A stretch of DNA of 48,984 nucleotides from Chloroflexota bacterium (GTDB taxonomy: Bacteria; Chloroflexota; Dehalococcoidia; Lucifugimonadales; Australimonadaceae): NCBI GenBank assembly GCA_022561455.1, contig JADFRC010000001.1:1-48984 (forward strand). Reading direction: 5' to 3'. Positions 28,516 to 48,456 of the stretch are shown one piece after another. Each line of letters begins with the position of its first letter. Position 1 is the first letter of the stretch. The notes below the pieces were generated by a model that was not told where the DNA came from, did not search any database, and saw only the letters and a list, made by a program, of their open reading frames with translations. The translations under genes were made by a program, and so were the position numbers.

Positions 28516-28602
28516 GATGCGCCGCGGGCACGCCACGCGCCGCGGTGCCCCCCGGAGGTTGCCAGCCGGCCAGGATCGGGCGCTCTACGCTATCCTTCAC
28601 CC

Positions 28603-29547: not shown

Positions 29548-29561
29548 GGAGCGCCGCCCCG

Positions 29562-30764: not shown

Positions 30765-30788
30765 CGCACGGCGGCCACGGGCCAAGGC

Positions 30789-32873: not shown

Positions 32874-32980
32874 GCGAGTCTCGGTCTAGCTGATAGCGGC
32901 CTCGTGCGTTGACACCTTCCGAGCGCCCGCCTATAGTCCGCGCAAGCTTATTGAACGCGTTGTCGGAGGAGGTTGTTGGG

Positions 32981-33469: not shown

Positions 33470-33615
33470 CCGGTGGAGTCGGAGCGAAGAGATCAAGGCC
33501 TCGCGGCGCGCGATAGACGCGGAGAGAGCCGTCGACGCCGCGGCGTCGTACACACCTAAAGACACACCCAGATCGGCGGCTCGGGTCCGAATCACGGTGG
33601 AACAGAGGAGACTCG

Positions 33616-34857
33616 ATGATGCGGAACTCACTGGCACCAAGGATGATCCGATGGTCGACGTTGGTCGGCGCCCTCGGGGCGTTGGCGCTGTTCGCGGCAG
33701 CGTGCGGATCTGACCCGACGGCCACGCCGCTCCCAACGGCTACGCCCGCGCCCACGGCGACGTCCATCCCCGGGCAGCCGACGGCGACCCCGACGGAGGC
33801 CCCGCCGGCCTGGGTGGCCGAGTGGGATGCGGCCGTCGCGGCCGCGCAGGCGGAGGGCAAGGTCGTCATTGCGCTGGGCGGCAACGCGAGCCGGACCTAC
33901 TCACCGCGGTTCGAGGCATTCGAAGCCGAGATGGGCATCGAGGTCATCGCAGGCACGGGCGGCGGATCGGTGCAGTTCGCGAAGATCAGCGCCGAGCGGG
34001 AAGCGGGCGTCTTCACGACGGACGTTTGGATGACGGGCGTGACGTCGACCAAGAACGTGAACAGCGTCGGCGCCCTGAAGGACAACATCTCAGACCACCT
34101 CATCCTGGCCGACGTGGTCGACCCGAACACCTGGGTCGATGGACACCTCTGGTTCCCGAATGGGCTCGAGGACACCACCATCGCGTTCTGCGCTTCGCCG
34201 AACGTCGCGTTCTCCTACAACACGGACCTGGTAGACGCATCGCAGCTGACCTCGTGGTGGGACCTCGTTGACGGGCGCTTCAAGGGACAGTGGGTAGGCA
34301 AGCTCCCTTGGGAGCCGGGGCAGACGGACTCCGAGCACTTCATCAACAAGCCGGAGCTCGGCGAGGCATTCATCCGGGCGTTCATACTCGACCAAGACGC
34401 GGAGTGGGTGGCTGACGCTCAGCAGGCGGTGGACCTGCTCGCGAAGGGCGTGAAGTCCATCTTCATGCCGACGGGCAACGCATCGAGCGACATCGAAGCC
34501 CTCGAGAGCTTCGGTCTGCCCGTGAAGAACCACTTCGCTCAGGGCTTCAAGGAAGGTGGTGTGATTGGCATCGGCGGCCTCTGTTCTCTGTCGCTGCTGA
34601 AAGACCCACCGCACCCCAACGCTCAGAAGGTCTTCCTCAACTGGTGGCTCACCAAGGAGAACCAATACGCGGCGGGCGGGATCAACGGGCTCAGCCACTC
34701 GCTCCGCGTGGACGTTCCGACGGACAACCTGCTGGAGAACTACATCCGTAAGGAAGGGGTCGAGTACTTCTTCCCGGAGGCCGACCCGAACGTCCCCACG
34801 GACAACCCTGGCCTCGCATTCAACAGGCAGCTTGCCGACGAGGCGGGATTGCGGTAG
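33616..34857 (+). CDS. ABC transporter substrate-binding lipoprotein, family 1 (iron(III)/polyamine/thiamine-type)
   Basis: Lipobox LFAAACGS followed by a Thr/Pro-rich linker. The family call is from size and the operon partners. Confidence 0.8.
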   Translation: MMRNSLAPRMIRWSTLVGALGALALFAAACGSDPTATPLPTATPAPTATSIPGQPTATPTEAPPAWVAEWDAAVAAAQAEGKVVIALGGNASRTYSPRFEAFEAEMGIEVIAGTGGGSVQFAKISAEREAGVFTTDVWMTGVTSTKNVNSVGALKDNISDHLILADVVDPNTWVDGHLWFPNGLEDTTIAFCASPNVAFSYNTDLVDASQLTSWWDLVDGRFKGQWVGKLPWEPGQTDSEHFINKPELGEAFIRAFILDQDAEWVADAQQAVDLLAKGVKSIFMPTGNASSDIEALESFGLPVKNHFAQGFKEGGVIGIGGLCSLSLLKDPPHPNAQKVFLNWWLTKENQYAAGGINGLSHSLRVDVPTDNLLENYIRKEGVEYFFPEADPNVPTDNPGLAFNRQLADEAGLR

Positions 34858-34905
34858 GCGGTCGCTGCGACAGCGCTTCGGAAGCGCGCAAGGCATAGTA
34901 ACGGC

Positions 34906-34933
34906 GGAGTGGCCCGCGGGCGAGGGCCACTCC
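34906..34933 (+). other. Perfect 10-bp intercistronic stem-loop after the SBP gene
   Basis: GGAGTGGCCC - GCGGGCGA - GGGCCACTCC. A second small hairpin GCGCTTCGGAAGCGC lies about 25 nt upstream. Confidence 0.55.
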
Positions 34934-34967
34934 GCAACGTGATAGGGCACGGGCCGGAGATAAGTTC

Positions 34968-36809
34968 ATGGCGAAGTTAGGTGAGACGCTGACCCGTCGG
35001 CGGCCTCTGATAGAGCTGCACCGGCCAGCCAACAGCACGGTGTTCGTCGCCGTGCTGGTCGTCTTGCTCGCCGGCTATATCCTCTATCCCACCCTTCTGA
35101 TCCTCATCAACAGCTTCAACACGTCGACGATTCCCCAGCAGGGGTTCAGTTTCGGACTCGACAACTGGCAAATCGCGTTCACGAAGCCGGGCATCTTCTC
35201 GGCCCTCTGGCACACGGTCCTGATCTGGTTCCTTTACACGGGCATCAGCTTCCCCGTGGCCGTGCTGATCGCGTGGGCCTTGGCGCGCCTGCACATCCCC
35301 GGCAGCTACACGCTGGAGTTCATGTTCTGGGTGTCGTTCATGTTCCCGACCATCGCGGTAGCGACGGGATGGATCATGCTCCTGGACCCGAACCTGGGCT
35401 TCATCAACATCCTCGCCGCCAAGCTGCCGTTCGTCGATCGCTTCATCTTCGACATCTTCAGCGTCCCGGGGATCGTGCTGGTGCACCTCCTGTCCACCGC
35501 GATCTCGGCCAAGGTGATGCTGCTGACTCCTGCGTTCCGCAACATGGACTCCTCGATGGAGGAGGCCAGCCGTATGGCGGGCGCGTCGACGTTCAAGACG
35601 ATGATGCGCGTGACACTGCCGGTCATGACGCCGATCCTCGTCGTCGTCTTCGCGCTCAACACAATCCGCCTGTTCGAGTCGTTCGAGATCGAGTGGCTCC
35701 TGGGTGTCCGCTTCAACTACTTCGTCTACTCGACGAAGCTCTTCTCGCTGATCCGGGACGAGGTGCCGCAGTGGGGTCAGGCGACGGCGCTCGGCTCGAT
35801 CACGCTGATCATGATCGCGATCCTGCTGCCGCTCCAGCGCTGGCTCCTCGGCCGGCGGAACTTCGAGACGGTGACGGGGCGTTTCCGCCCCGGCTTCATC
35901 GAGATCGGCCGATGGCGCTGGGTGATCTTTGGCGGCATCACCACGCTCCTCTTCCTGCTGACCGTCGCGCCGTTCTTCTCGCTCATCCTGGGCAGCTTCA
36001 TGAACCGGATCGGCTACTTCGAGTGGGTCCCCATATTCACGCTTGATCACTGGAAGTTCGTGTTCAACGATGGGCAGTTCTGGGACGGGATCAGGACGAC
36101 CCTAATCCTGGCGTTCTCGACGGCGTTGATCAGCCCGATCCTCTTCTCGATCTTCGCCTACATCCTGGTGCGTACGAAGTGGCGGTTCAGGGCGGCGCTC
36201 GAGACGATGATCTGGCTATCGGCCGCCATCCCGGGCATCCTGTCCAGCATCGGGCTACTCTGGGCGGTCTTGGGCACCGAGTTCTTCGGCTGGCGTCCCT
36301 TCCTGCCCCTCTACGGCACCATCTACCTCCTCATACTGGTAGTCATCCTCCAGGGCAAGCTGACGAGCACGACGTTCATCAAGGGCGTGTTCATCCAGCT
36401 CGGCTCGGAGCTCGAGGAGGCCTCCCGTATCGCCGGTGCAAACTGGGTGCAGACCTATCTGCGCGTCTGGATGCCCCTAATCATGCCCACGCTGATCCTG
36501 CTGGGCACCTTCAATTTCGTGCTGGCTGCTTCGACGACGAGCAGCATCATCCTGCTGTCGGCTATCGGCACCAAGACGCTGTCCATACTGACCCTGGAGC
36601 TGTCCTCGCCGGGCCTCGGCATGCGGGAGGAGGCCGGCGTCGTGACCATCGTCATCATCATCATGACGGTGGGCGTTGCACTTGTCGCACGCCGGTTCGG
36701 ACTGCAGCTCGGCGTCCGCCACGACGCGCGGGCCCGAGACGCCGCCCGCCAGGGCGTACCGGTGACCGTCGACCCCGCGGCTGCCTCGCCGGGGCAAGGC
36801 GCGCGGTAA
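34968..36809 (+). CDS. Fused two-domain ABC transporter permease (FbpB/ThiP-like)
   Basis: 613 aa with two EAA-type loops (MEEASRMAGASTFKTMMRVTLP and LEEASRIAGANWVQTYLRVWMP). Confidence 0.88.
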   Translation: MAKLGETLTRRRPLIELHRPANSTVFVAVLVVLLAGYILYPTLLILINSFNTSTIPQQGFSFGLDNWQIAFTKPGIFSALWHTVLIWFLYTGISFPVAVLIAWALARLHIPGSYTLEFMFWVSFMFPTIAVATGWIMLLDPNLGFINILAAKLPFVDRFIFDIFSVPGIVLVHLLSTAISAKVMLLTPAFRNMDSSMEEASRMAGASTFKTMMRVTLPVMTPILVVVFALNTIRLFESFEIEWLLGVRFNYFVYSTKLFSLIRDEVPQWGQATALGSITLIMIAILLPLQRWLLGRRNFETVTGRFRPGFIEIGRWRWVIFGGITTLLFLLTVAPFFSLILGSFMNRIGYFEWVPIFTLDHWKFVFNDGQFWDGIRTTLILAFSTALISPILFSIFAYILVRTKWRFRAALETMIWLSAAIPGILSSIGLLWAVLGTEFFGWRPFLPLYGTIYLLILVVILQGKLTSTTFIKGVFIQLGSELEEASRIAGANWVQTYLRVWMPLIMPTLILLGTFNFVLAASTTSSIILLSAIGTKTLSILTLELSSPGLGMREEAGVVTIVIIIMTVGVALVARRFGLQLGVRHDARARDAARQGVPVTVDPAAASPGQGAR

Positions 36810-36815
36810 GGGGCC

Positions 36816-37985
36816 ATGACTGACCACGTGGACACGGCAAGACGCTCGTCGCTGGTCTCGCCAACAGGGACCGGCGCCGCGGTGCGTATCGAGGGGTTGC
36901 TGAAGACCTTCGGCGCCGTCGCCGCGGTCGACCACATCGACCTGGACATCAAGGCGGGCGAATTCTTCACGCTGCTCGGCCCGAGCGGATGCGGGAAGAC
37001 GACGACGCTCCGCATGATAGGGGGCTTGGAGAGACCTGATGCAGGCAAGGTGACCGTGGGCGACGACGTGGTCGTCTCGGTCAGCGACCGGCGGTTCGTT
37101 CAGCCAGACAAGCGTGACATGGGCATGGTGTTTCAGAGCTATGCACTCTGGCCACACATGACGGTGTTCGAGAACGTGGCCTACCCGTTGAAGATGCGCG
37201 GCCTGAGGAAAGCGGATATCAGGGATCGTGTGGAGGAGACGCTCCGGCTGGTCGGCCTCGAGGGCTTCAGCAGCCGGCCGTCCCCACTGCTCAGCGGCGG
37301 ACAGCAGCAGCGCGTGGCTCTCGCGAGGGCTCTCGTGTACTCACCGCGGGTCCTGCTGCTCGACGAGCCCTTGAGCAACCTCGATGCCAAGCTGCGCGTC
37401 ACGATGCGCCAAGAGCTCAAGGACCTCCAGACCCGCGTCGACGTCACGATGATCTACGTCACCCACGACCAGACAGAGGCACTGAGCCTGTCGGACCGCA
37501 TCGCGATCATGAACTCGGGCCGCGTCGAGCAGGTCGGGACGCCGCAGCAGATCTACCTCCACCCAGCGACCGCCTTCGCCCAGGACTTCCTCGGCCAGAC
37601 CATCAGCATCGACGGCCGGGTCGACGGGCCGGGGGTGGTCAAGGTCGCGGGGGACGTGGAGAACCTGATCCACGTGGCGATGGACCCCGCCAAGATCGCC
37701 GTCGGAGACGAGGTAACGGTCGCCATCCGCCCCGAGCAGATGCTGACGCACGACACGATGCCGAGCGGGGCGGAGAGCCGGAACATCATCCGCCTGGTCG
37801 TCGAAGAAGCGACGTTCGTTGGTGACCACTACGAATACAAAGGGCAGGTCGGGGACGCGCTCGCCGTCATCCCGCTGCCCTCCAACAAGCGATACGCGGT
37901 CGGAGAAACCGTCTACTTGGAGTTCCCCGAGTCAGCCGCCGCGGTGTGGCCCAAGGGCGCCGAGGTCGCGGACCATATCGATTAG
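36816..37985 (+). CDS. ABC transporter ATP-binding protein (FbpC/PotA/MalK-like with a C-terminal TOBE-like domain)
   Basis: [26 protein letters not shown] and LLLDEPLSNLD. Confidence 0.92.
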   Translation: MTDHVDTARRSSLVSPTGTGAAVRIEGLLKTFGAVAAVDHIDLDIKAGEFFTLLGPSGCGKTTTLRMIGGLERPDAGKVTVGDDVVVSVSDRRFVQPDKRDMGMVFQSYALWPHMTVFENVAYPLKMRGLRKADIRDRVEETLRLVGLEGFSSRPSPLLSGGQQQRVALARALVYSPRVLLLDEPLSNLDAKLRVTMRQELKDLQTRVDVTMIYVTHDQTEALSLSDRIAIMNSGRVEQVGTPQQIYLHPATAFAQDFLGQTISIDGRVDGPGVVKVAGDVENLIHVAMDPAKIAVGDEVTVAIRPEQMLTHDTMPSGAESRNIIRLVVEEATFVGDHYEYKGQVGDALAVIPLPSNKRYAVGETVYLEFPESAAAVWPKGAEVADHID

Positions 37986-38102: not shown

Positions 38103-39410
38103 CTAGAGAGCGCGCGCCGGGCCACGCTCGGTGCGCTCCGCCGCGGCCGCCGCTGCCGTTTCGCGCAGATCGGGCAGCTTCCGTAGATGCAGGTTCGGCG
38201 CCGCGAAGAACAGCGCGAAGACCACTACCATCGCGCCGCTTGCCGCCAGCGCGAATGGCGCCGAGACGGCCGCCGCGATGCTCGTCAGCTGGATCTCGCC
38301 CATCGGCCGCACGCTCGTGTGCACGATGCTCCAGATCCCCATCACGCGGCCCCTGAAATCGTTCGGGACCATCATCTGGAGGTTGGCTTGCACCGCGACG
38401 TTGAGAGCTGAGGCACCGGTACCCAGAACGAACAGCGTCCCCAGCGACAGGAGATACGCCGTCGACATCGCGAACAGCACCATGGACGCCCCGAGCGTCA
38501 CCGACCCCCCGACCAGCAGACGGTGCTGGAACCGAGGACTCGCTAACGTCGCGGCGACGACAACCCCCGCCACACTCCCGACGCCGACGGCGGTATGCAT
38601 CATGCCCAGCCAGAACGGGCCGACGTCCAAGATATCCTTCGCAACCACGGGGAAAAGGACGCCGAGAGAGATCCCGAAAAACATGTTGTAGTAGGCCACG
38701 CCGATCAGGTGGGCAAAGATGCGTTCGCGCCAGATGTACCTGGCCCCTTCCGCCATGTCGCTGAGCAGGGTGCCCCCGCGCGACCGCTTGACCGGCGGCA
38801 GGTGCACGCGCATCAGCATCATGGCGTAGACGGCAACGCCCCCGATGGTCAGCAGCAGCACGGTGCCGCCCGCGATCCGCGCTGAGTCGGTCACCGCCAA
38901 AACGCCGGCCAGGATCAGCCCGCCGAGCCCTGGAGCGAAGATCCGGGTCGCTGGATGGATCGACGAGTTCATCGCGACCGCGTTCGGCATCGCGGCCCGG
39001 TCGACGAGGTGCGGGAACATGGACTGGCGCGCGGGATTCTCGAACGAGCTGACCGCGGAATGGAGGAAGGAGACGACGAAGATGTGCCAGACCGCGAGGA
39101 CCTCGGTGAGCGCCAACGCCGCGAGTAGTCCCAGCAGCACGATGTAGATCCATTGGATCCCGATCAGCAGCTTGCGTTGATCGAACTTGTCCGCAATCAC
39201 GCCGCCGAGCAGCACGAGGACGGTCGCGGGTACCGCCTGAGCGAGCGCATTCACGCCCAGGTACACCTTCGAGCCGGAGATCTCGTAGATGAGCCAGGGC
39301 TCGACCATCCAGAGCATCTGCTGGCCGGAGATCGAGACGACGTAGCCTATCCAGTAGAGGCGGAAGTCCCGGTGCCGAAGGGAGCTGAAGCGTGCGAGCG
39401 TGGTGGGCAT
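38103..39410 (-). CDS. MFS transporter
   Basis: 435 aa with about 12 TM segments. RHRDFRLYWIGYVVS N-terminus and GGVIADKFDQRK loop. The same-strand 460-aa ORF 38056..39438 is the wrong frame. Confidence 0.85.
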   Translation of the reverse strand: MPTTLARFSSLRHRDFRLYWIGYVVSISGQQMLWMVEPWLIYEISGSKVYLGVNALAQAVPATVLVLLGGVIADKFDQRKLLIGIQWIYIVLLGLLAALALTEVLAVWHIFVVSFLHSAVSSFENPARQSMFPHLVDRAAMPNAVAMNSSIHPATRIFAPGLGGLILAGVLAVTDSARIAGGTVLLLTIGGVAVYAMMLMRVHLPPVKRSRGGTLLSDMAEGARYIWRERIFAHLIGVAYYNMFFGISLGVLFPVVAKDILDVGPFWLGMMHTAVGVGSVAGVVVAATLASPRFQHRLLVGGSVTLGASMVLFAMSTAYLLSLGTLFVLGTGASALNVAVQANLQMMVPNDFRGRVMGIWSIVHTSVRPMGEIQLTSIAAAVSAPFALAASGAMVVVFALFFAAPNLHLRKLPDLRETAAAAAAERTERGPARAL

Positions 39411-39552
39411 GTGGATGCAAGTCTAATCGACAGAGCAAGCCGTGCGGTGCCGCGCGCGGCCGAATCGGCCCTGGCGAGCTTGGATTGTTCGTTCGCGTCG
39501 TGACCGGACTGTCCGGACTGCGGACGGCCGCGGCCTTGAGGCTCGCGCGACG

Positions 39553-41169
39553 CTACTCCTCCCGGGCGCGGTTGTACCCGCCGTAGTAGTACTGCGAGTA
39601 GTACGCATACGTATCGGCGTCCCGGCGGAGTTTGTTGAGGACGACGTCCACGCGCGCTGCCTTCACCATGTCCAGCCCCTGCCTGGCGCGCTGGACCGCC
39701 GTATTGCGCAGCATGCCTGACCAGACAACCAGGATCACCCGGTCCACTGCATTCGCGACCACAAGCGCATCGCTCGAGTAGAGCACCGGCGGGCTGTCCA
39801 GGATGATGACGTCGGCCATCTCCTTCATCTCATCCAGCATCCGCCGCATGCGCCCGGAGCTCAGGATGGCAGTGGGCGTCGAGGTCGAGGTCCCCGCGAC
39901 CAGGACCCTGAGGCTCCCCGAGCGCGCATCTGAAGGCAGGGGGCAGTCCGTCAAGAAATCATCTAGCCGCGCGTCGTCTCGTGAGAGATATTCGTTCAGC
40001 CCCTCATCCTGTGGGAGCCCGAGCGCGCGGTGCAGGCTCGGCCGCCTCATGTCCGCATCGAGTGCGATGACTTTCTGACCGGCCATGGCGTGAGCCAGGG
40101 CCAGATTGGACACGACCGTCGTCTTGCCTTCTCCGATCTCGGCGCTGGTGACGAGGATCGTCTGCGGTTCCGGCCCGGGCCGGGAGAATTGCAGGTTCGC
40201 GCGTAAGAGGTGATAGGGCTCCAAGAGCGATGGGTCCTCGACCCTGCTTTTCACGCCGGCGGGACCCCCCCCCGGCTTGAGCAGGCTGTGGATCGGCAGC
40301 GCACCCATGACCGGAACGCCGAGGAGACGTCGCACCTGGTCCGGGTTCCTTACCTTGTTGGTGTCCAGATATTCCAGACCAAACGCCAGCCCGAGCCCGA
40401 TCATTGCGCCCAGGATCAAACCCAAGGCGGCGATCCTGCGCGGGTTGGGATAGATCGGCGAGCTCGGGGTCGAGGCACGCGCGCGCACCGTCAGCACGTC
40501 GGTGATCCGCGCCGTCCCCAGCCGCATCGCCTCAAGCTCCGTCAAGCCGACCGCGTATTGGCTTTCGAAGGAGCGCAGCTGCAGACCGAGCGATTGCGGG
40601 TCGCCTTCTCCCGCGGCGAGAGCCCCCCTGGTTTGTTCGATCTGCTGCAGCAGGCTGTTGGTGCGGACCTGGAGGATCGCCGCGGCCGTTGCCGCCCGCC
40701 GGTGCCACTCGAGCAGACTCTCCGCTCGCATCACGTCGGCCAGCTCGTTGGCGACGTCCGCGGCCAGCATGGGGTCTGTGTGTTCTACCGTGATACGCAG
40801 GAAGGCCGTGCTATTTATCGCAGCCAAGGTGATCTTGCCCAGACCCACTCCCGCGGGGAGGTCGAGGTTATCGGCCACCTGGTTGAGGATGGGGGGCGTC
40901 TTCATCAGCTCGATGAAGGTGGGCACCGCCTCCCGGCTCAAGAACAGCCCCGAGAAGGGGTCCATCTGCGCCGGCCGTATCGCCGCCGCGTTGACTTGGA
41001 GGATCGCTTCGGTGCGATAGCGCGGCGTCAGCGTGAACGTGAGAACGACAGCGCCGGCGAGGCCAAGGACAAGCGGAAGGACGATGATCCACCGCCGTTT
41101 CCACAGCATCTGGGCGTATTCGGCTAACGAGAGCCCCGTGTCTTCGGCGTCCGTCTGATAGTCCTGCAT
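39553..41169 (-). CDS. Polysaccharide co-polymerase (Wzz) fused to a BY-type tyrosine autokinase
   Basis: Start MQDYQTD at 41169. Wzz-like N-terminus with two TM segments, Walker A SAEIGEGKTT, A' VIALDADMRRP, B VIILDSPP, and C-terminal tyrosine cluster DTYAYYSQYYYGGY. Confidence 0.88.
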   Translation of the reverse strand: MQDYQTDAEDTGLSLAEYAQMLWKRRWIIVLPLVLGLAGAVVLTFTLTPRYRTEAILQVNAAAIRPAQMDPFSGLFLSREAVPTFIELMKTPPILNQVADNLDLPAGVGLGKITLAAINSTAFLRITVEHTDPMLAADVANELADVMRAESLLEWHRRAATAAAILQVRTNSLLQQIEQTRGALAAGEGDPQSLGLQLRSFESQYAVGLTELEAMRLGTARITDVLTVRARASTPSSPIYPNPRRIAALGLILGAMIGLGLAFGLEYLDTNKVRNPDQVRRLLGVPVMGALPIHSLLKPGGGPAGVKSRVEDPSLLEPYHLLRANLQFSRPGPEPQTILVTSAEIGEGKTTVVSNLALAHAMAGQKVIALDADMRRPSLHRALGLPQDEGLNEYLSRDDARLDDFLTDCPLPSDARSGSLRVLVAGTSTSTPTAILSSGRMRRMLDEMKEMADVIILDSPPVLYSSDALVVANAVDRVILVVWSGMLRNTAVQRARQGLDMVKAARVDVVLNKLRRDADTYAYYSQYYYGGYNRAREE

Positions 41170-41174
41170 GGCCG

Positions 41175-42200
41175 CTACGCTCGCCCTGCCAGCCAACGGG
41201 CCCCACGCACCGTGAAAGCCCACGCCTGGAGCGGCCGGGCCGGCGTGTTGCTCGACGGCGCCCGCCACTTGGCGGCCGCTTGGATCCGGCTCGGCCAGCG
41301 CATGCCGATCCCTTGGAGCACCCCGGCCGGATGGCGCAGGTAGCTTCCGAACCGCCGCGCATACCCCGGGTGGCCCGCTCCCCACGCTCGGAGCACGTCG
41401 GAGACCAGCCACTCGGGCAGCTCCACTGCCATCCGTCCCTCGCGTGGTACGTCGAGGCGCGCGCCCAGGAGTTCCTCAGCGACGCGGAGGACGCACATCA
41501 CCCAGCTCGAGTGGTGCTCCTTCCCGCTCAGGAAGTACTCCCAGTCGAACCCCGCCGGCAGGCGGTCCAGCGCCACCCCGACGTCGCATAGCCACGTCGG
41601 CCGCCAGAAGCCGTGGCGCAGCAGGTGCAGACACAGGAGGCGCAGATGGTCCTCGGGCCCCAGCATGCGTATCTCGACGTCTCCCAGGGCGGCGAGCTGA
41701 GAACGGCGGTAGAGCTCGTCCAGGGGGCGGTCGGCGAGCTCGCTGAACCGTGGGTGCAGGTCCACCCCGGCGCGCATCACGTTCGGCGTGGCCTTGGCCA
41801 CCGCAAAGGTCTCGGGGGGGACCAGCAGGTCGAGGTCGCCGTAGGGGCGCAGGCCCGGCTCCGGATAGAGCCGCGCGATGGCCCAGCCCTTCGCCAGCAG
41901 CGGCTCGATGCCGGCCGAGCGCAGCAGACCGACCGTGCGCGCGAGCTCGTGCTCGTGGACGGCAGCCTGGATGGTGTGCAGGCGGTAGGAGCGCCGCAGC
42001 CGTCTCCCGGCACGGGACGTGGCCAACGGGGAGTGCTGGAAGCGCCACCAGCCCAGCGCCCCCCCACCCGTCTCCAGGAGCAGCGGCGTGATCTCGCCCA
42101 GCTCCTCGGCCGACATGGCCATGGGCGGGGGCGGCTGGCGCCACGCTCCGGCAAGAGCCGTCGCCAACAGGCCGCCTTTCTTGCTCGTCGATCTGGTCAT
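41175..42200 (-). CDS. Uncharacterised nucleotidyltransferase family protein (NTP_transf_5 / PF14907-like)
   Basis: GIEPLLAKGWAIARLYPEPGLRPYGDLDLLVPPE is the block I associate with this family. The start is either ATG 42200 or GTG 42230; the latter overlaps the upstream gene by 8 nt. Confidence 0.7.
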   Translation of the reverse strand: MTRSTSKKGGLLATALAGAWRQPPPPMAMSAEELGEITPLLLETGGGALGWWRFQHSPLATSRAGRRLRRSYRLHTIQAAVHEHELARTVGLLRSAGIEPLLAKGWAIARLYPEPGLRPYGDLDLLVPPETFAVAKATPNVMRAGVDLHPRFSELADRPLDELYRRSQLAALGDVEIRMLGPEDHLRLLCLHLLRHGFWRPTWLCDVGVALDRLPAGFDWEYFLSGKEHHSSWVMCVLRVAEELLGARLDVPREGRMAVELPEWLVSDVLRAWGAGHPGYARRFGSYLRHPAGVLQGIGMRWPSRIQAAAKWRAPSSNTPARPLQAWAFTVRGARWLAGRA

Positions 42201-42222
42201 GATTCGCAACCGTGCAGACTCC

Positions 42223-42732
42223 CTAGACACACTCGGGTTCGCTGATGTTTCTGCATTTGCCCAAGCAGCAGATCTTCGTGCAGTTCGGGGGGCCGCATGG
42301 GAGAAAGTTGTTTATTCCCGCACAGCCGTTGGCGGCGACACACGTACCGGCCTGAGCGGCGGTCGGCGACACGATCGATATGACCGTGGGTAAGAGGACC
42401 GCCAGTCCGACCACCCCCGCCTTCACCAGGAACTTCCTCCGCGAGTAGCGAGCCGCGAGCAACGGCGGCGCGAGGCGCTCGACCAGGAGATGCGCCTTGT
42501 CGAGTCCCGCCAGCCCCAGCCGCACCACGTCCTCGTCCCGTGGCAGGCCGAGCTCGCTCTGGAGCACCGCTGCCATCTGGTCCGCATCCGTCTGACCGTC
42601 GCAATGACTCCAGATGAGTCCCGCGGCCGCGTTCAAGCAGTACGCCCGGTGCCGCTGGAGGTCGTACACCAAAGTTTCGTCCGCCACCCGCTTGATCACC
42701 AGGTGGTCGTTCCGCGCTCGCGGCAACGTCAT
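42223..42732 (-). CDS. PqqD-family (RRE-type) domain fused to a twin-arginine signal-anchor and a Cys-rich C-terminal tail
   Basis: Residues 8-95 have the PqqD pattern (VIKRVADETLVYDLQRHRAYCLNAAAGLIWSHCDGQTDADQMA...). Then YSRRKFLVKAGVVGLAVLLPTVISIVSPTAAQA (S-R-R-x-F-L-K Tat consensus, h-region, AxA). Then a 41-aa tail with 8 Cys. Confidence 0.75.
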   Translation of the reverse strand: MTLPRARNDHLVIKRVADETLVYDLQRHRAYCLNAAAGLIWSHCDGQTDADQMAAVLQSELGLPRDEDVVRLGLAGLDKAHLLVERLAPPLLAARYSRRKFLVKAGVVGLAVLLPTVISIVSPTAAQAGTCVAANGCAGINNFLPCGPPNCTKICCLGKCRNISEPECV

Positions 42733-42786
42733 CGCTGTGCACCAGTTCGTAAAGGCTCATATGCCTGCTCAGCCGCGAGAATCGGC

Positions 42787-43611
42787 TCAGCTCCCCACCG
42801 CCGCGAGTAACGGTCCGGCGGTTTCCACGGCTTCGCCCCGCGAGCCGCGGAGCACGCGCGTGCCCTCGACGATCCGGGCCAGCTTCGTGAGGACCTGCTC
42901 CGGCTTCCTGCGGGCAGCCACCGTGTTGGCCAGCAGGGAGAGGACCGCCTGCCCGGGGGACAACGGCCGTGGCCGCCACCGTGCGCCGGGCCGGTACGTA
43001 GCCACCGCGATAACGCCGACCGGCAGCGGTTTGAGCCCGCCAGGGGGCTTGGGCATGTCCACCCGCACCTTCTCGGGCGGCATGTCAGCCCCTTTCCTCA
43101 GGGAGAGAGGGACTCGGTAGGGGTGCACGAGACCGTGGTCGTCGAACACCGCGTATTCGTCGGAGAAGTACGTCGCCCCGGCCCGTACCAGCGCCTCGAC
43201 GAGCGTGCTCTTGCCCGAGTAGCTGCGTCCGGGTATCACGATCGCCCGGCCTTCCCAGGCCACCACCCCCGCATGGACGAACAGCTTGCGCCGCGACCAT
43301 TCCGCGACGTAGAGGCGCACGTCATCTTCGAGGCGGTCCAGCACCTCGTCTGGGTCCATGGACCTGGCGATCCGGGCTGCGCCTGCGTAGAGAAGGCTGT
43401 AGCGCCGCACGCCGGAGCGGCCCCCGTCGCCCCCGGCGATCAAGGAGTAGAGGCGGTCGACGACGTTGGACGAGGCCGGCCTCCACCCCGGAGGCAGGCG
43501 TTGCGGCAGCTCATCGAGTAGCTGCGGGTCGTTCATCCGGATGCCGATCCTCAGCCCGTGTGCCACGAAGCTCATGCCTGTCGCCCACCCGAGGCGATCG
43601 AGCGTCTCCAT
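42787..43611 (-). CDS. HprK-related P-loop kinase (HPr kinase C-terminal-domain-like)
   Basis: 274 aa. VHAGVVAWEGRAIVIPGRSYSGKSTLVEAL P-loop in the position and context typical of HprK-related kinase A/B families. Confidence 0.78.
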   Translation of the reverse strand: METLDRLGWATGMSFVAHGLRIGIRMNDPQLLDELPQRLPPGWRPASSNVVDRLYSLIAGGDGGRSGVRRYSLLYAGAARIARSMDPDEVLDRLEDDVRLYVAEWSRRKLFVHAGVVAWEGRAIVIPGRSYSGKSTLVEALVRAGATYFSDEYAVFDDHGLVHPYRVPLSLRKGADMPPEKVRVDMPKPPGGLKPLPVGVIAVATYRPGARWRPRPLSPGQAVLSLLANTVAARRKPEQVLTKLARIVEGTRVLRGSRGEAVETAGPLLAAVGS

Positions 43612-43707
43612 TCAGGTGGAGCCCCGTTTGAGACGAGGAAGCGCATCGGGGTCTCCCCGATGCATCGGGGAGCTCCGTGGCCCCTTCACGAAAAGGATCT
43701 CTTCCAT
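43612..43707 (-). CDS. Candidate 31-codon upstream ORF / leader or precursor peptide (speculative)
   Basis: ATG at 43707 preceded by GAGGA with 8-nt spacing. It encodes MEEILFVKGPRSSPMHRGDPDALPRLKRGST. Its TGA (43614-43612) abuts the kinase ATG (TGAATG). GC3 is lower than in neighbouring genes, so coding status is unproven. Confidence 0.25.
   Translation of the reverse strand: MEEILFVKGPRSSPMHRGDPDALPRLKRGST
43644..43672. promoter_or_regulatory. Three-segment inverted repeat (mutually exclusive hairpins or palindromic operator) upstream of the kinase gene
   Basis: CATCGGGG (43644-51), tct, CCCCGATG (43655-62), CATCGGGG (43663-70). 43653-43672 is a perfect 20-nt palindrome, CTCCCCGATGCATCGGGGAG. 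Confidence 0.45.
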
Positions 43708-44160
43708 CTGGATCGTCCTCACCCTTCTCCATCACGATACGGGAGCGCCTTGCGAAGCGCCATCGCTCGATAGGATGGCGGCGGAGTGATGATGGCTGTG
43801 CGAGGGTAGTCCGATAGAGGTACCCCGGCTGACGCGTGACCCATACCGACGAGCCGAGTAGCGGTGCGGCCGCAGGCAACGGGCGTGACGAAGCGTGTCT
43901 CCAGCAGAGCCCTCCCCCGGTCACGGCAACGACCGCCCTATACGCTTGACCTCATAGGCTGCGGGAATGCCCGTTTTCGTGTCAATGGAGTTCGCCACAC
44001 GTTTTTCAGGCGTTGCGAAGACGCTGCCTGAACGAGCACCGGTCCACCTCGGTGGCAGAGGGAACTACGGATGCGGCAGGTTCGCTCGCGCGGGGGTCGA
44101 GCGCGGTGGCTGCGGTGCTTAGCTCCGCGTGGGCCTTGCGGCCGCCGGCGCAGCCCGCCG

Positions 44161-45963
44161 CTACCGCTGTGCAGACTCGATCCGAAAGACCTGGACGCGG
44201 TGGTTGTTCGTGTCGCTCACGTACGCGTTGCCAGACCCATCGAGCGCGATCGCGGTGGGGAACTGGAACCGGCCGGGCCCCGTCCCCTCGCTGCCCCACG
44301 CAGCCAGGAACCCCCCACGGCTGTCGAAGACCTGCACCCGGTTGTTGCCGGCGTCGGCCACGTAGACCCTGCCCGCGCCGTCCACCGCGATGCCCGCAGG
44401 GGAGGAGAACTGGCCTTCGGCGCTCCCCTCGGACCCCCAGCTCCTGAGGAACTCGCCAGCGGAGCTGAACACCTGTATCCGGTGGTTCCCGCCGTCGGCC
44501 ACGTAGATATCGCCGTTGCTATCCGATGCGATCGCGGAGGGGCGCACGAGCTCCCCGCGTTCATCGCCCCGTCTGCCCCACTCGGCCAGCGGCTCGCCGC
44601 CGGGGCCGAACACCTGTATCCGGTGGTTCCCGCCGTCGGCCACGTAGACATTCCCGATGGCGTCCACCATCACGCCGTTCGGGATCTCGAGCTGCCCGGC
44701 CCCAGCGCCTTCGGTACCCCACTCCGCCACGCGCTCCCCGCTCGGCGCGAAGACCTGCACGCGGTGGTTGCCCGTATCGGCCACGTAGACGTCCCCAGAG
44801 CTATCCACGGCGACGCCCCGGGGCCACCGGAGGTTCGAGGTCTCCCAAGCAGCCAGCAGCTCGCCCGCCGGAGTACGCACCTGCACCCGGTGATTTCCGG
44901 CGTCTGCGACATAGACGTTCCCATCACCGCCAACGGCTACCCCGCGGGGCCAGAGGAAGCCATCTTCGCTCGGTTGCCCGCCCCAGGTTGCCAAGACCGC
45001 CCCACTGGGATCGAACGCGATGACCCGATTTTCGAGATCGGTGACATACACCTGACCACGCCCATCGACTGCGACTCCCGCCGGGTCACGCAGCTCCGAT
45101 CCCCAGCTCGCGATCGGATTCCCTGTTTGATCGTAGATCCGCACCCGGCCGCCGTCTGCATCGGTGACGTAGACCCTCCCTGAGTCATCGACCGCTATCG
45201 CTCGGGGGTCGAGCGTCCCCTCCAGCGCCGTCTTCAAGTCCCACGCCCGCAAGAAAAGACCACCGCTGCTGAAGACGTGCACGCGCTCCGCCGTCAGCTC
45301 CAGCACGTACAGCTTGCCGTCCATGCCCAGCGCTATGCCGCCGGGGGTACGGACATGGCCGCTTTCGCCCGGAGGACCCAGGATGGAGAGGAATTCACCG
45401 CGATCGCTGAACACCGAGACCCGCCTGTTGCGGGCGTCTACGACGTAGACCCTGCCGAAGCGGTCGGCCACGATATCCGATGGTGCCTCGAGCTGGCCCT
45501 CACCGTCTCCTCGCTCGCTCCACGTGGCGACCAGATCGCCGCTGGGCTCGAATACCTGGATCCGGTGGTTGCCGGTATCCGCGACGTACACGTTCCCGAG
45601 GAGCCCAACCGCGATCCCCATCGGGTGATCGAAATCTCCGTCGCTACGACCGAGGCCCCCCCACTGCCGGAGCACCTCGCCGTCCGGGGAAAAGACCTGC
45701 ACCCGGTGATTGAGCGTATCGGCGACGTAAACGTTGCCGGCGCCGTCGAGGGCGACGCCGGATGGACCATTCACCTGGCCCGGCGCGGCAGCGCCGCCCC
45801 AGGCCTGGAGGAAGCTGACGGTCAGGGTCTCCTTCTCGTCTTGGGCGCAGGCCCCGAGCAGCCAGACTGCCGCGGCACACAGGAGGAACGCTCGGCCGAG
45901 ACTCACCGGCAGGGACCACGGAGGAGTCAGTACTTCGCGCAACGGTGCTCCTCGCTGGTCCAT
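44161..45963 (-). CDS. NHL-repeat lipoprotein (12 blades, two six-bladed beta-propellers)
   Basis: Lipobox LLGAC after MDQRGAPL (ATG 45963; the track start is 45999). Twelve repeats of the type YVAD.GNHR[VI]QVF...G. Confidence 0.88.
   Translation of the reverse strand: MDQRGAPLREVLTPPWSLPVSLGRAFLLCAAAVWLLGACAQDEKETLTVSFLQAWGGAAAPGQVNGPSGVALDGAGNVYVADTLNHRVQVFSPDGEVLRQWGGLGRSDGDFDHPMGIAVGLLGNVYVADTGNHRIQVFEPSGDLVATWSERGDGEGQLEAPSDIVADRFGRVYVVDARNRRVSVFSDRGEFLSILGPPGESGHVRTPGGIALGMDGKLYVLELTAERVHVFSSGGLFLRAWDLKTALEGTLDPRAIAVDDSGRVYVTDADGGRVRIYDQTGNPIASWGSELRDPAGVAVDGRGQVYVTDLENRVIAFDPSGAVLATWGGQPSEDGFLWPRGVAVGGDGNVYVADAGNHRVQVRTPAGELLAAWETSNLRWPRGVAVDSSGDVYVADTGNHRVQVFAPSGERVAEWGTEGAGAGQLEIPNGVMVDAIGNVYVADGGNHRIQVFGPGGEPLAEWGRRGDERGELVRPSAIASDSNGDIYVADGGNHRIQVFSSAGEFLRSWGSEGSAEGQFSSPAGIAVDGAGRVYVADAGNNRVQVFDSRGGFLAAWGSEGTGPGRFQFPTAIALDGSGNAYVSDTNNHRVQVFRIESAQR
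44467..44648 (-). repeat. Intragenic tandem duplication within the NHL gene (141-nt period)
   Basis: A 41-nt exact copy gaacacctgtatccggtggttcccgccgtcggccacgtaga at 44467-44507 and 44608-44648. The offset is 141 nt, or 47 codons, which is one NHL blade. Confidence 0.85.
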
Positions 45964-46176
45964 GCCGCACATCATTAGGGAGACACGGTACCATTGCAAT
46001 CAGAACATAAGTTCTTTTACGCTGCGCCTTCACCCGATGCCGCGGGGTGCTCCAGTGTTCGCTTGTGTGCTCATCGACCACCTGCCGGTCAAGGCAGAGG
46101 TCCACCGGGCGCCGTCCGCTCCCACGGATGACGTTCGAGTGCGCGGGGCACGATTCATGAGCGTAAGATTGGCCGC

Positions 46177-46413: not shown

Positions 46414-48456
46414 ATGGAGCACGCATCCCACGCCGCGCACCAGCCCGAGGCCGGCCAAGCCGGTCCCCAGCACTCCGCGGGCCACGGCTCCCATCACGCC
46501 CACATGGTGGCCGACTTCAGGCGGCGCTTCTGGGTGTCGCTTGTCCTGAGCGTCCCGATCCTCGCGCTGGCGCCGCTGATCCAGGAAACGTTGGGCGTCG
46601 CCGATGCCTGGGCGTTCGGGGGCGACCGCTTCATCCAGTGGGGCTTTTCGACGGGCGTGTACTTCTACGGTGGCTGGCCCTTCCTGACGGGCATCGTTAC
46701 CGAGCTGCGGGGCCGGGCCCCAGGCATGATGACGCTCATCGCCGTCGCCATCACGACGGCCTACGTCTACAGCAGCACCATCACCTTCGGCGTCTCCGGC
46801 GACGGCTTCTTCTGGGAGCTGGCCACGCTGATCGACGTCATGCTGCTCGGGCACTGGCTGGAGATGCGCTCGATCCTCGGTGCCTCGCGGGCGCTGGAGC
46901 TCCTTGCCAGCCTCATGCCCGCGGACGCGCACCGGCTGAGCGCGGACGGCACGACCTCAGACGTACCCGTCGCGGAGCTGCGGCCCGGCGACCGCGTGCT
47001 CGTGCGGCCCGGGGAGCGCGTGCCCACGGACGGCGTCGTGGCCGACGGCCGCTCGTCGGTCAACGAGGCCATGCTCACCGGCGAGAGCGCCCCCGTCGAG
47101 AAGAGGGAGGGCCTCCAGGTGATCGGAGGGTCCGTCAACGGCGAAGGGGCCCTCACGGTCGAGGTCCAGCGCACCGGCGAGGAAACGTACCTCGCTCAGG
47201 TCATCGAGCTGGTGCGCCAGGCACAGGAGACGCGCTCACGCACGCAGCGGCTGGCGGACCGCGCGGCGTTCTGGCTCACGATCGTCGGCATCACCGCCGG
47301 CGCCGCGACGCTGATCGGCTGGTTCGGCGCGTCCGCCACGGCCAATTTCGCGCTCCAGCGGGCGGTCACGGTGGTCATCATCACGTGCCCCCACGCGCTC
47401 GGCCTCGCCATCCCGCTCGCGGTCTCCGTCTCCACCTCGATCGCCGCGCGTCACGGTCTGCTCATCAGGGACCGCGCGGGCTTCGAGCGGGCCCGGTCGA
47501 TCGACGCGATCGTCTTCGACAAGACCGGCACGCTCACCGAGGGGCGCTTCGGCGTCACCGCGGTCGTCCCGCTCGACGGCCGGAGCGAGGACGACGTCCT
47601 GCGCTTGGCCGCCGGTATCGAGCGCTCCTCCGAGCACCCGATCGCCCGCGGCATCGTCGAAGCAGCTGAGGCTCGCGGGCTCGGCGGCGCGCGTGTCAGC
47701 GGCTTCGCCGCGATCCCAGGCCGGGGCGCGAGCGGCGTCGTCGACGGGCGGGACGCGAAGGTCGTCAGCCCCGGTTATCTGCGGGAGCAGGGGATCGCCG
47801 CCGACGCCGGCAAAGTCGGCGCTCTCGGCGGCACGGGCGACACCGTCGTCTATCTCCTGATCGAAGGCGCGCTTGCCGGGGCGATCGCTCTCGGCGACAT
47901 CGTCCGCGAGGAGTCGCGCACGGCGGTGAACGACCTGAAGGCCATGGGCATCCGCGTCATCATGCTCACCGGCGATGCCGAAGCCGTCGCACGCTCGGTG
48001 GCCGATGAGCTCGGGCTCGACGACTTCTTCGCCGAGGTCCTTCCGGGCGAGAAGGCCGCGAAGATCCGTCAGCTTAAACAGCGAGGTCTGACGGTAGCGA
48101 TGGTCGGAGACGGCGTGAACGACGCACCCGCGCTGACCGAGGCGGACGTCGGCATCGCGATCGGAGCGGGGACGGACGTGGCCATCGAGTCGGCCGACGT
48201 CGTGCTCGCCCGCTCGGACCCGCGCGACGTCGTCACCATCGTCCGGCTCGCCCAAGCGACGTATCGCAAGATGGTCCAGAACCTCTGGTGGGCGACGGCC
48301 TACAACCTGATCGCCATCCCCCTGGCTGCGGGAGCGCTCTACAGCTGGGGCTACGTCATGCCCCCCGCGGTGGGCGCCGCGCTGATGTCGGCGTCGACGG
48401 TGATCGTCGCGATCAACGCCCAGCTCCTCCGCCGGTTCGAGCGCACATTAGCCTGA
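46414..48456 (+). CDS. copB: Copper-transporting P1B-type ATPase, CopB-like (His-rich N-terminus, CPH motif)
   Basis: N-terminus [10 protein letters not shown]...HGSHHAHM with no HMA domain. TGES, TM6 [24 protein letters not shown] and [10 protein letters not shown]. Confidence 0.92.

Follow-up and report, generated by a model that had tools for sequence, protein, structure and literature searches.

A conserved kinase-PqqD-nucleotidyltransferase trio whose recognition protein may carry its own cysteine-rich peptide substrate

We analysed a 48,984-nt stretch of DNA from a Chloroflexota bacterium (assembly GCA_022561455.1, contig JADFRC010000001.1, positions 1 to 48,984; the whole stretch is referred to here as the window), in which an HprK-like P-loop kinase, a PqqD-domain protein and a PF14907 nucleotidyltransferase are encoded one after another on the minus strand. 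The PqqD-like domain is a recognition element (RRE) of the kind that serves peptides made by the ribosome and modified after translation (RiPPs). We found that the kinase, PqqD and nucleotidyltransferase genes form a conserved unit, and that the PqqD protein is not a free-standing chaperone, as its RRE, which resembles lasso peptide B1 proteins, is always fused to a twin-arginine translocation (Tat)-type motif and a hypervariable tail. The system is probably a variant form of RRE-guided peptide tailoring with a lasso-type kinase and nucleotidyltransferase, in which the RRE is fused to its probable substrate. We tentatively propose, at somewhat less than an even chance, that the 169-aa protein is a self-contained RRE-led precursor or cargo that would be tailored in the cytoplasm and exported, and that the trio would be neither an HPr-rel-A system nor a lasso cluster. 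There is a fair chance that it represents a distinct, very widespread and undescribed class.

Results

The trio is conserved across phyla

The trio and the parts of its PqqD protein lie in the window as follows.

43611..42787, minus strand: HprK-like P-loop kinase, 274 aa, PEPCK/HprK fold
42732..42223, minus strand: PqqD/RRE protein, 169 aa
42463..42732, minus strand: RRE (PqqD-like) domain, residues 1-90 of the PqqD protein
42349..42447, minus strand: putative internal Tat-type signal/recognition stretch, residues 96-128 of the PqqD protein
42226..42348, minus strand: residues 129-169, GTCVAANGCAGINNFLPCGPPNCTKICCLGKCRNISEPECV, the hypervariable and Cys-rich tail, whose 8 Cys are arranged C-C-C-C-CC-C-C; proposed exported product
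41175..42200, minus strand: PF14907 (NTP_transf_5) nucleotidyltransferase, 341 aa from ATG (351 aa from GTG 42230)

A sequence-only reading of the window had described a tightly spaced series of co-directional minus-strand genes, and every gene that it named is present: an upstream open reading frame (uORF), the trio, a Wzz/bacterial tyrosine kinase (BY-kinase) gene and a major facilitator superfamily (MFS) transporter gene. The gaps are 0 nt between uORF and kinase, 54 nt between kinase and PqqD, 22 nt between PqqD and nucleotidyltransferase, 5 nt between nucleotidyltransferase and BY-kinase, and 142 nt between BY-kinase and MFS gene. The 22-nt gap would turn into an 8-nt overlap with GTG 42230, at which the listed nucleotidyltransferase open reading frame (ORF) begins; relatives keep ATG 42200 as the start. 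From the uORF through the MFS gene, third codon positions show the G+C bias of true genes (the window is 68% GC). No convincing promoter or terminator was found.

The window proteins were assigned by profile searches with NCBIfam (TIGR) and Pfam models and their curated cut-offs, and the families named in the sequence-only reading hold (PF05402, PF14907, PF02706 and TIGR01007), with the kinase placed by its PEPCK/HprK fold and a TIGR04352 match below the cut-off. The PqqD protein scored 27.9 bits against PF05402 (gathering score 23.4) and the nucleotidyltransferase 96.2 bits against PF14907 (gathering score 31.2). For the kinase, TIGR04352 (HprK_rel_A) gave a partial match over residues 60-172 (E 1e-15, 57.5 bits against a cut-off of 200), and the copy of Pfam that was searched gave none. 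Its AlphaFold model (pLDDT, predicted local distance difference test, 85.5) matched phosphoenolpyruvate carboxykinase (PEPCK) in Foldseek with an E value of 2e-5 and HprK/P (1kkl) with a template modelling (TM) score of 0.52. Sequence searches of the PDB with the kinase and the nucleotidyltransferase, as single sequences and as family profiles, returned nothing significant, and the kinase could be placed by its fold only.

A pattern scan of 185,579 species genomes yielded 432 loci encoding relatives of the 169-aa PqqD protein. We retrieved 80 of them, all from uncultured bacteria, and 52 of the 80 span at least 15 kb (well-flanked loci). They belong to Acidobacteriota (Blastocatellia, Pyrinomonadaceae), Gemmatimonadota, Methylomirabilota/Rokubacteria, Chloroflexota and others. 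Searching with the window proteins (tblastn) showed that the kinase, PqqD and nucleotidyltransferase genes follow each other in the same direction, usually adjacent, in most of the 80 loci; among the well-flanked loci, the kinase was found in 40 of 52 and the nucleotidyltransferase in 36 of 52, which puts the trio in about 75% of them. The adjacency on which the sequence-only reading depended is therefore conserved, and its conservation across phyla makes the arrangement more than chance. Sampling from the kinase side gave the same picture, with a PqqD gene in every sampled neighbourhood and a called PF14907 gene in all but one, a low-coverage assembly (L083) that shows no more than a disrupted nucleotidyltransferase reading frame. 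Clustering of ORFs of at least 90 aa revealed no other gene family recurring across the trio loci; shorter ORFs were not clustered. Taken together, these results show that the conserved unit is the kinase-PqqD-nucleotidyltransferase trio.

Both families are large. The kinase has more than 6,337 relatives, all unnamed or "hypothetical", and the PqqD-tail family comprises 1,930 clusters (50% identity) at E <= 1e-30, nearly all of 155-205 aa and matched end to end. The closest genome relatives of the PqqD-tail gene of the window are in Methylomirabilota (53%) and Gemmatimonadota (~48%). Tandem arrays are present in many genomes. Three tandem copies of the PqqD-tail gene occur in each of three loci (L002, L055, L077), another locus (L008) holds two complete trios, and extra "orphan" copies without a kinase are common, often beside C25 peptidases. 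Tandem arrays and orphan copies are usual for precursor genes, which supports the precursor character of the PqqD-tail gene.

Two short PqqD genes in this set, L083:7232-7930 (130 aa) and L087:8908-9510 (118 aa), are artefacts of long-read, low-coverage assemblies; the first has a premature stop and the second a frameshift, and the Cys-rich tail can be read past the stop or in the other frame. In L083, the start of the nucleotidyltransferase is also visible inside the called "gap".

The trio proteins are homologues of lasso peptide tailoring proteins

In Bradymonas sediminis, the lasso cluster kinase BsfK phosphorylates Ser3 of the core peptide, and the free-standing RRE BsfB1 strongly stimulates the reaction (PMC10368454). 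HPr-kinase homologues of lasso clusters phosphorylate linear precursors, and the cluster-encoded nucleotidyltransferase PsmN adds a hexose to the phosphate of pseudomycoidin (PMC8498205). We translated the Bsf proteins from the gene sequences printed in PMC10368454 and retrieved the bsf locus (L090) separately. The PqqD-tail family profile matched BsfB1 with 36.6 bits (E 2e-13), and the kinase family profile matched BsfK across the catalytic core (E 2e-9; hhalign probability 92.3%). The nucleotidyltransferase profile aligned with BsfN, itself a PF14907 protein, over 153 columns that include the GD-x-D motif (hhalign probability 93.5%).

The catalytic residues are invariant across both enzyme families. 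In the kinase, the pattern H113, G128, G133-K134-S135 and D151-E152 has exactly the spacing of BsfK H148, G163, G168-K169-S170 and D186-D187; these form the H / G-x4-G-K-S / D-D motif of lasso kinases, and the BsfK residues were experimentally important (PMC10368454). In the nucleotidyltransferase, D132 and D134 of GDLDL, D157 and H159 (ORF numbering) are invariant. The profile matches to BsfB1, BsfK and BsfN thus identify the trio proteins as homologues of the lasso B1/K/N set, and what had been offered as an analogy to phosphorylated lasso peptides turns out to be real homology.

The gene order at the bsf locus is FG-GAP protein, Asn_synthase, ABC (ATP-binding cassette) transporter, PqqD, Hpr_kinase_C/PF27840 "ScmC", Transglut_core3, NTP_transf_5, rpsL, rpsG and fusA, so that the cluster ends directly upstream of rpsL-rpsG-fusA. 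Gemmatimonadota trios also lie directly upstream of rpsL, and in several of these bacteria (L002, L003, L004, L008) the trio stands between rpoB-rpoC and rpsL-rpsG, as read from cluster representatives. The bsf cluster and these trios may owe their common insertion site to shared ancestry.

The RRE is fused to a conserved signal-like stretch

Alignments of the PqqD-tail family show three regions: a conserved N-terminal domain (residues 1-90), a linker with a hydrophobic stretch, and a tail that can be aligned only at its cysteines. The AlphaFold model (pLDDT 80.6 overall and ~90 in the RRE domain) has the three-strand, three-helix RRE fold. The top Foldseek matches of this domain were lasso B1 proteins, TbiB1 with its leader peptide (5v1v, TM 0.73) and 6jx3 (TM 0.71-0.74 for the set), followed by PqqD.

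Behind the RRE, an RR pair directly precedes the hydrophobic peak in 196 of 197 members. It belongs to the motif [S 77% / T 15%]-R-R-x-[LFVM]-[LIVM]-[RK], with S or T before RR in ~92% of members, and the median distance from RR to the first Cys is 33 residues. The stretch of the window reads Y-S-R-R-K-F-L-V-K, then AGVVGLAVLL-P115-TVI-S119-IVS-P123-TA-A126-Q-A128, and fits the features of a Tat signal in its S97-R-R-K-F-L-V-K motif, uncharged hydrophobic region, Pro at -6 and A126-Q-A128 site. Unlike that of ordinary signal peptides, the hydrophobic stretch is conserved in sequence (A-h-h-L-P-x-[VI]-x-[S/T]-I-V-[A/S]-P-T-A-A). The P-x7-P spacing is kept in 189 of 191 members, position +4 is S/T in 94%, T-A-A-(Q)-A comes next, and A-Q-A stands directly before [T/S]-C. 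The AlphaFold model has a short strand at residues 117-120 with confidence above that of both flanks. B1-type RREs bind a conserved strand-forming h-x-x-P-x-h element in lasso leaders (YxxPxL motif; PMC10368454), and on this model the RRE of the trio may likewise bind the conserved stretch of its own chain.

The fusion is obligatory. In six-frame translations of all loci, 106 of 106 signal-plus-tail segments were joined to a PqqD domain, and no free-standing signal plus Cys-rich peptide was found that an RRE could bind in trans. Four segments that seemed unfused were rejected as truncations or frameshifts in low-coverage assemblies. The RRE had been called an orphan; no known core enzyme was found with it, in agreement with that name, but the RRE protein most likely carries its substrate or cargo itself, in which case the RRE would not lack a peptide.

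The Cys-rich tail is hypervariable on a fixed scaffold

Of 197 tails, 193 have an even number of cysteines (6, 8, 10 or 12). The framework seen most often is C-x6-C-x5-CC-x3-C-x4-C; 55 of 196 tails are exactly C-C-CC-C-C, and 11 more are tandem doubles. Core length ranges from 25 to 80 residues across the family, and S or T occurs within two residues ahead of the first Cys in 173 of 196 members. Pfam and structural searches with the tail gave no match; in the AlphaFold model, the tail of the window has a predicted beta-hairpin at residues 153-162 (pLDDT 75-84). The sequence-only reading had recognised the resemblance to lasso-type tailoring in proposing peptide modification, and this part stands, but it gave little weight to the Cys-rich tail, which is the key feature.

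Between close relatives, the RRE and signal are 80-99% identical and the tail 40-57%, or 25-46% when cysteines are excluded. In the extreme case (P0008), identity to the window is 99% in the RRE, 93% in the signal and 43% in the tail. The contig of this protein (L086) is 99-100% identical to the window in DNA over 2.7 kb, intergenic leader included, except in one patch, 42372..42193, with an identity of 58-75%; it starts right after the first Cys codon and stops just beyond the stop codon. This near-identical strain departs from the window just in the ~150 nt that encode the tail. All types of change occur among the 56 differences between window and L086, without adenine bias, and no template repeat for retroelement mutagenesis was found in the window. 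These two results rule out a diversity-generating retroelement as the source of the tail variation and indicate that the tail is an allelic cassette that arose by recombination or as an old polymorphism.

Compared with two other close relatives (L081 and L082), the ratio of non-synonymous to synonymous substitution rates (dN/dS) was 0.44 for the tail, against 0.19-0.21 for the remainder of the gene (small sample), so that the RRE and the signal appear to be under purifying selection (dN/dS ~0.2). Fast evolution of the tail on a fixed Cys scaffold, with alternative alleles in near-identical strains, would be expected of a secreted interaction molecule. The allele-like pattern together with the multi-copy arrays suggests a product that interacts with other cells or proteins. 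The family also shows the general pattern of RiPP precursors, namely a conserved recognition part, a hypervariable core and several copies, both tandem and orphan.

Two observations concern genes near particular tails. A 383-aa protein with the zinc/iron-chelating motif CxxCxxCC (PF03692-like, 22 bits, just under the cut-off) is encoded between the PqqD-tail and nucleotidyltransferase genes in 8 loci, mostly of Gemmatimonadota (for example L002:10786-11937, L003:11948-13096, L008:10669-11820 and L011:10651-11802), and the tails at these loci are strongly cationic (K/R-rich, defensin-like). In an Entotheonellia locus, a DsbH-type thioredoxin gene (L089:10217-10986; PF03190, 256 bits) lies directly 3' of the nucleotidyltransferase gene, which fits oxidative folding of the Cys-rich tail.

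No class-defining RiPP enzyme was found with the trio

A Pfam scan of 26 ORFs of the window, 20 of them at 7883..34857 and 46414..48456, revealed no protein of the lasso cyclase, B2 protease, radical SAM, YcaO or LanB/C kinds; it left out the ORFs of the first 7.8 kb and two transporter ORFs at 34968..37985. BsfC and BsfB2 gave no tblastn match in the window. In related loci, BsfB2 had no match in 1.42 Mb of sequence plus the window, BsfC had two weak partial matches (L005, L066) in 89 other loci, and no class-defining RiPP enzyme was found as a recurrent neighbour. The claim that no such enzyme accompanies the RRE is thus borne out for the scanned ORFs and for recurrent neighbours, and neither the Pfam scan nor the tblastn searches turned up a lasso cyclase or B2 protein hidden nearby. 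The transglutaminase at 30789..32873 was rejected as a lasso B2 protein; it is of the TgpA type, stands beside MoxR and DUF58 genes and lies 10 kb from the trio. PADLOC models gave no match to the kinase, the PqqD protein, the nucleotidyltransferase or the BY-kinase, which leaves a known anti-phage defence system unsupported.

The trio differs from the known systems that it resembles

Our literature search turned up only papers on lasso peptides, none of which described an RRE joined to a signal and a Cys-rich tail. The trio shares with the phosphorylated and phosphoglycosylated lasso clusters (paeninodin, pseudomycoidin, bsf) a homologous B1-type RRE, an HprK-like kinase (H...G-x4-GKS...D[DE]) and a PF14907 nucleotidyltransferase. 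Unlike them, it has no Asn-synthetase-like cyclase, B2 protease or ABC exporter, either here or as recurrent neighbours; its RRE is fused to the putative substrate, with a signal-like segment in place of a short leader; and its core is a multi-cysteine peptide that lacks the C-terminal acceptor Ser of the paeninodin type.

Membership in the HPr-rel-A system of NCBIfam (TIGR04352 with the PqqD chaperone TIGR04353), which the sequence-only reading had suggested, was not supported. Both systems pair an HprK-related kinase with a dedicated PqqD protein, and TIGR04352 is the best NCBIfam match of the kinase, but the score of 57.5 bits (57.7 and 69.3 for relatives) is far from the cut-off of 200, and the isolated RRE scored 14.7 bits against a cut-off of 35 for TIGR04353, which gave no match to the whole PqqD protein at E <= 0.01. 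The TIGR04353 profile has 74 positions, which suggests that it describes a free-standing RRE, whereas the trio protein has 169 aa with a signal and a Cys-rich tail. The SynChlorMet pair ScmC/ScmD likewise consists of a kinase-like and a PqqD-like protein; ScmD is the best NCBIfam match of the RRE, and the kinase relatives and BsfK carry PF27840 "ScmC", but all profile matches are weak and under the cut-off. Radical SAM maturases and a short peptide encoded separately are central to the SynChlorMet cassette, and neither was found at the trio.

Like Tat signals, the stretch combines an S/T-R-R-x-F-L-K motif with a hydrophobic region free of charges, Pro at -6 and an A-x-A site; it differs from them in being internal and conserved in sequence in its hydrophobic region, and in having its putative chaperone covalently attached and of the RRE type. 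By the logic of TorD, DmsD and NapD, a signal-binding domain could hold back the signal until maturation is complete. The tail framework C-x6-C-x5/6-CC-x3/4-C-x4-C belongs to the spacing class of omega-conotoxin MVIIA. Knottins also share hypervariable loops on a fixed Cys scaffold, but the trio tails are bacterial, the tail of the window has 8 Cys (C-C-C-C-CC-C-C) and not six, and a I-IV, II-V, III-VI disulfide knot is putative in them. Precursors of the NHLP/Nif11 type have a large leader derived from a protein domain and a short hypervariable core, often in multi-copy arrays. The trio protein differs from them in that its leader is itself an RRE fold and its junction resembles a signal-peptidase site rather than a GG/C39-protease site.

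Discussion

In the mechanism that we propose, the N-terminal RRE would stay in the cytoplasm and dock in cis on the A-h-h-L-P-x-[VI]-x-[S/T]-I-V-[A/S]-P-T-A-A stretch of its own chain. The docked complex would recruit the HprK-like kinase, as BsfB1 does with BsfK, and then the PF14907 nucleotidyltransferase, which would decorate the phosphate as PsmN acts on phospho-serine. The likely acceptor would be a conserved Ser/Thr, either S119 in the stretch or T130, two residues past the predicted cleavage site (compare Ser3 for BsfK). Once released, the stretch (S-R-R-K-F-L-V-K ... A-Q-A) would act as a Tat-type signal. Signal peptidase I would cut off the exported C-terminal part, whose oxidation would give a disulfide-rich mini-protein; for the window, this would have 41 residues, 8 Cys and 4 disulfides. 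Candidate roles of the product are those of a bacteriocin, a pheromone, a protease inhibitor (in view of the C25 neighbours) or an adhesin.

Several points weigh against this proposal. The evidence for modification is computational throughout, and the acceptors of the kinase and the nucleotidyltransferase are candidates only. The Tat-like motif begins at residue 97, behind a folded domain, and so lacks the N-terminal position of a Tat signal; we know of no precedent for a Tat motif behind a folded 95-residue N-terminal domain. The conserved stretch is predicted as a strand, not a helix, its cis docking on the RRE remains putative, and permanent anchoring in the membrane is another possible role of the hydrophobic segment. 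Ser is the C-terminal residue in only 4 of 196 tails, and the tail of the window ends in ...ECV, so that the classical C-terminal-Ser chemistry of lasso peptides cannot apply. The dN/dS value of the tail comes from 35 codons and is below 1. About a quarter of PqqD-tail genes have no kinase or nucleotidyltransferase within 10 kb, and the tailoring may therefore act in trans or be optional. Finally, the recurrent polysaccharide and C25-peptidase context is unexplained by the precursor model.

This context would find a place if the protein were a membrane-anchored single-pass regulator, with the RRE inside and a Cys-rich knob outside, whose cytoplasmic or juxtamembrane part (S119 or the RRE) is reversibly modified by the kinase and the nucleotidyltransferase. 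Such a switch would control the synthesis or export of envelope polymers (Wzz/BY-kinase, Wza, Wzy_C) or the activity of surface proteases encoded nearby, and the variable knob would be a surface-exposed sensor or an antigen selected by phages or competitors. Polysaccharide-export genes within 10 kb of the trio in 24 of 52 loci and the adjacent Wzz/BY-kinase gene in the window clade are consistent with this, as are the conserved Ser amid a hydrophobic stretch, which would suit a switch, the classical role of HprK/P-type enzymes as regulatory kinases acting on small proteins, and the existence of uncleaved Tat-type signal anchors, for example in Rieske proteins. However, Gemmatimonadota trios lie between rpoC and rpsL with no polysaccharide genes nearby, A-Q-A with Pro at -6 resembles a cleavage site, arrays of three paralogues and allelic cassettes better suit secreted products, and all three proteins are homologous to peptide-tailoring proteins of lasso clusters. 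We consider an anchored regulator unlikely, though less so than the other alternatives. The well-kept Tat consensus, the fact that Tat substrates typically contain cofactors, and a tail in which only cysteines are conserved would also fit an exported small metalloprotein, whose Cys would bind a metal or Fe-S-type cofactor loaded in the cytoplasm, with the RRE as a cis signal chaperone and the two enzymes for loading or quality control. But tails with 6, 8, 10 or 12 Cys, conotoxin-like CC spacing and loops of variable length fit disulfide scaffolds better, no cofactor-biosynthesis genes recur near the clustered trio loci, and allelic cassettes are unusual for redox proteins, which leaves this explanation improbable.

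The obligatory fusion bears on a further alternative, in which the PqqD domain would bind a separate small precursor, for example the product of the uORF, and the tail would merely anchor the chaperone near an exporter. Free-standing RREs normally act in trans (PMC7470986), and a 31-codon uORF abuts the kinase start. The uORF is limited to the closest clade, however, no further recurrent family was found among ORFs of at least 90 aa at the trio loci (shorter ORFs were not clustered), and the hypervariable tail on its fixed Cys scaffold and the tandem copies would be left unexplained; we give this slightly less credence than a metalloprotein. The trio could also be what is left of a decaying phosphorylated-lasso cluster, devoid of any coherent function after the loss of cyclase, B2 protein and transporter, as the homology to bsf B1, K and N and the shared position directly upstream of rpsL-rpsG might suggest. 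Against this, thousands of intact members occur across phyla with invariant catalytic residues, the RRE and signal appear to be under purifying selection (dN/dS ~0.2), and the fusion is a conserved, obligatory architecture of its own. These conservation data largely refute a remnant, which we regard as very improbable.

An RRE-led precursor of the kind proposed here would matter beyond this locus. In the search for new ribosomal natural products, RREs offer the main handle that does not depend on class, but "orphan" ones mostly go unpursued, and a very large family (~1,900 clusters at 50% identity, >6,000 kinase relatives) has apparently been misread as a lone chaperone. If the RRE is fused to its own substrate, precursor finders that seek a separate short ORF miss the whole class. 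The predicted products would be small, hypervariable, disulfide-rich peptides from uncultured soil phyla, on a kind of scaffold that is valued in toxins, inhibitors and drug leads, and PF14907 and HprK-related/ScmC kinases would gain a function outside lasso peptides. With three genes in ~2.4 kb, the system is readily tractable, and the allelic cassette of the tail poses an ecological question, that of kin recognition or antagonism among these bacteria. On the broadest view, which we offer as a speculation more likely wrong than right, the trio would define a widespread unrecognised class of ribosomal peptides, in which an RRE within the precursor serves as docking platform and cis chaperone of the Tat signal, and the products are exported "knottins" with phospho-, phospho-glycosyl or nucleotidyl decoration. 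As the alleles of these differ among strains that are identical in other respects, they would resemble pherotype determinants, bacteriocins or inhibitors, made by soil Acidobacteriota, Gemmatimonadota and related bacteria.

Neighbouring genes and further observations

The other features around the trio are the following.

43707..43612, minus strand: uORF of 31 codons, MEEILFVKGPRSSPMHRGDPDALPRLKRGST, directly abutting the kinase start
43612..44000, minus strand: conserved 5' leader, clade-specific, holding the uORF and the palindrome CCCCGATGCATCGGGG
39553..41169, minus strand: Wzz + BY-kinase (Wzc-like) with a C-terminal tyrosine cluster, accessory neighbour
38103..39410, minus strand: MFS transporter (MFS_3 / EntS-like), 435 aa, PF05977 129.5 bits, outside the conserved unit
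44161..45999, minus strand: NHL-repeat beta-propeller, PF01436 308 bits, lipobox-like LLGAC, upstream neighbour

The uORF and the MFS gene had both been counted as parts of the operon, and neither belongs to the conserved unit. The uORF occurs only in the three closest relatives (L081, L082, L086) and in 0 of the other 86 loci; it was rejected as a precursor peptide on this restriction and on its mostly non-synonymous substitutions. The MFS gene is missing from L081, where the BY-kinase almost directly joins an ABC-transporter operon (window 37985..33616), and the indel relative to L081 spans window 38103..39517; an MFS transporter that amounts to an indel was rejected as a dedicated exporter.

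The ~390-nt leader (43612..44000) is 100% identical in L086 and 83-90% identical in L081 and L082, a conservation at least as high as that of the coding genes, and is absent elsewhere. It gave no match in Rfam at E <= 1, which leaves a riboswitch or known RNA unsupported. Its palindrome is perfect, and in L082 the stem is kept and the loop changed.

The BY-kinase shows the features of its family: a Wzz domain (PF02706, 47 bits), a match to TIGR01007 (141.7 bits against a cut-off of 108) and, as read from the translation, the Walker motifs A (GEGKTT), A' (VIALDADMRRP) and B (VIILDSPP), with a cluster of tyrosines, YAYYSQYYYGGY, at the C-terminus. The listed ORF begins at 41412 (619 aa) and would overlap the nucleotidyltransferase by 238 nt; the true start is realistically ATG 41169 (MQDYQT...). 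The gene adjoins the trio only in the window clade (L081 and L082, with 88% kinase identity, and L083, with 60%) and lies within 10 kb in 10 of 52 other loci.

Polysaccharide genes more broadly (Wzz/BY-kinase, Wza, Wzy_C or GT4 transferase) account for the 24 of 52 loci noted above, and the kinase-side samples agree; in L087 the trio lies inside a Wza-Wzz-GT4 block and in L088 inside a TPR-Wzy_C-Wza-Wzz-BY-kinase block. The suggested coupling of the trio to tyrosine-kinase-controlled envelope export thus survives in part, as the association with envelope functions is real and recurrent, but it is looser than had been supposed, with an adjacent BY-kinase confined to the window clade. The Wzz/BY-kinase, polysaccharide genes, C25 peptidases and the NHL propeller often lie near the trio and relate to the envelope, but do not belong to its core.

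Giant C25 peptidases occur in 20 of the 52 loci of at least 15 kb. In the full set, 25 of 80 loci have PqqD-tail genes flanked by Peptidase_C25 (gingipain-family) proteins, which measure 1,000-1,900 aa and are especially common beside the kinase-less "orphan" copies (for example L030:10780-14367, L036:6674-9925, L041:6801-9953, L046:5315-8692, L088:1-2686 and 4602-7826, and L089:401-7343). These neighbouring proteases might be inhibited by the Cys-rich tails, or have them as partners or substrates. The NHL protein is 84% identical in L081 and L082 and 47% in L084 and L085, and is absent from the 80 genome loci; in other phyla its position is taken by C25 peptidases or TPR+CBM proteins. It scored above the cut-off of the "ScyF" NCBIfam model, probably just through its NHL repeats.

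The further scanned ORFs of the window encode ABC transporters, a MoxR-DUF58-TgpA set, a LigB dioxygenase, BNR and PD40 proteins, a CAAX protease and a P-type ATPase. The MoxR-type AAA_3 ATPase, DUF58 protein and TgpA-type transglutaminase at 28603..32873 are a standard trio. The CAAX protease (10406..11200, minus strand) is Rce1-like (PF02517), belongs to a family whose members are often bacteriocin immunity or processing proteins, and lies ~30 kb from the kinase-PqqD-nucleotidyltransferase trio, with no link established. In six Blastocatellia loci (L020, L025, L046, L047 at 1812-3119, L050 and L077), an uncharacterised 435-aa protein that has no Pfam match is encoded next to the PqqD-tail gene.

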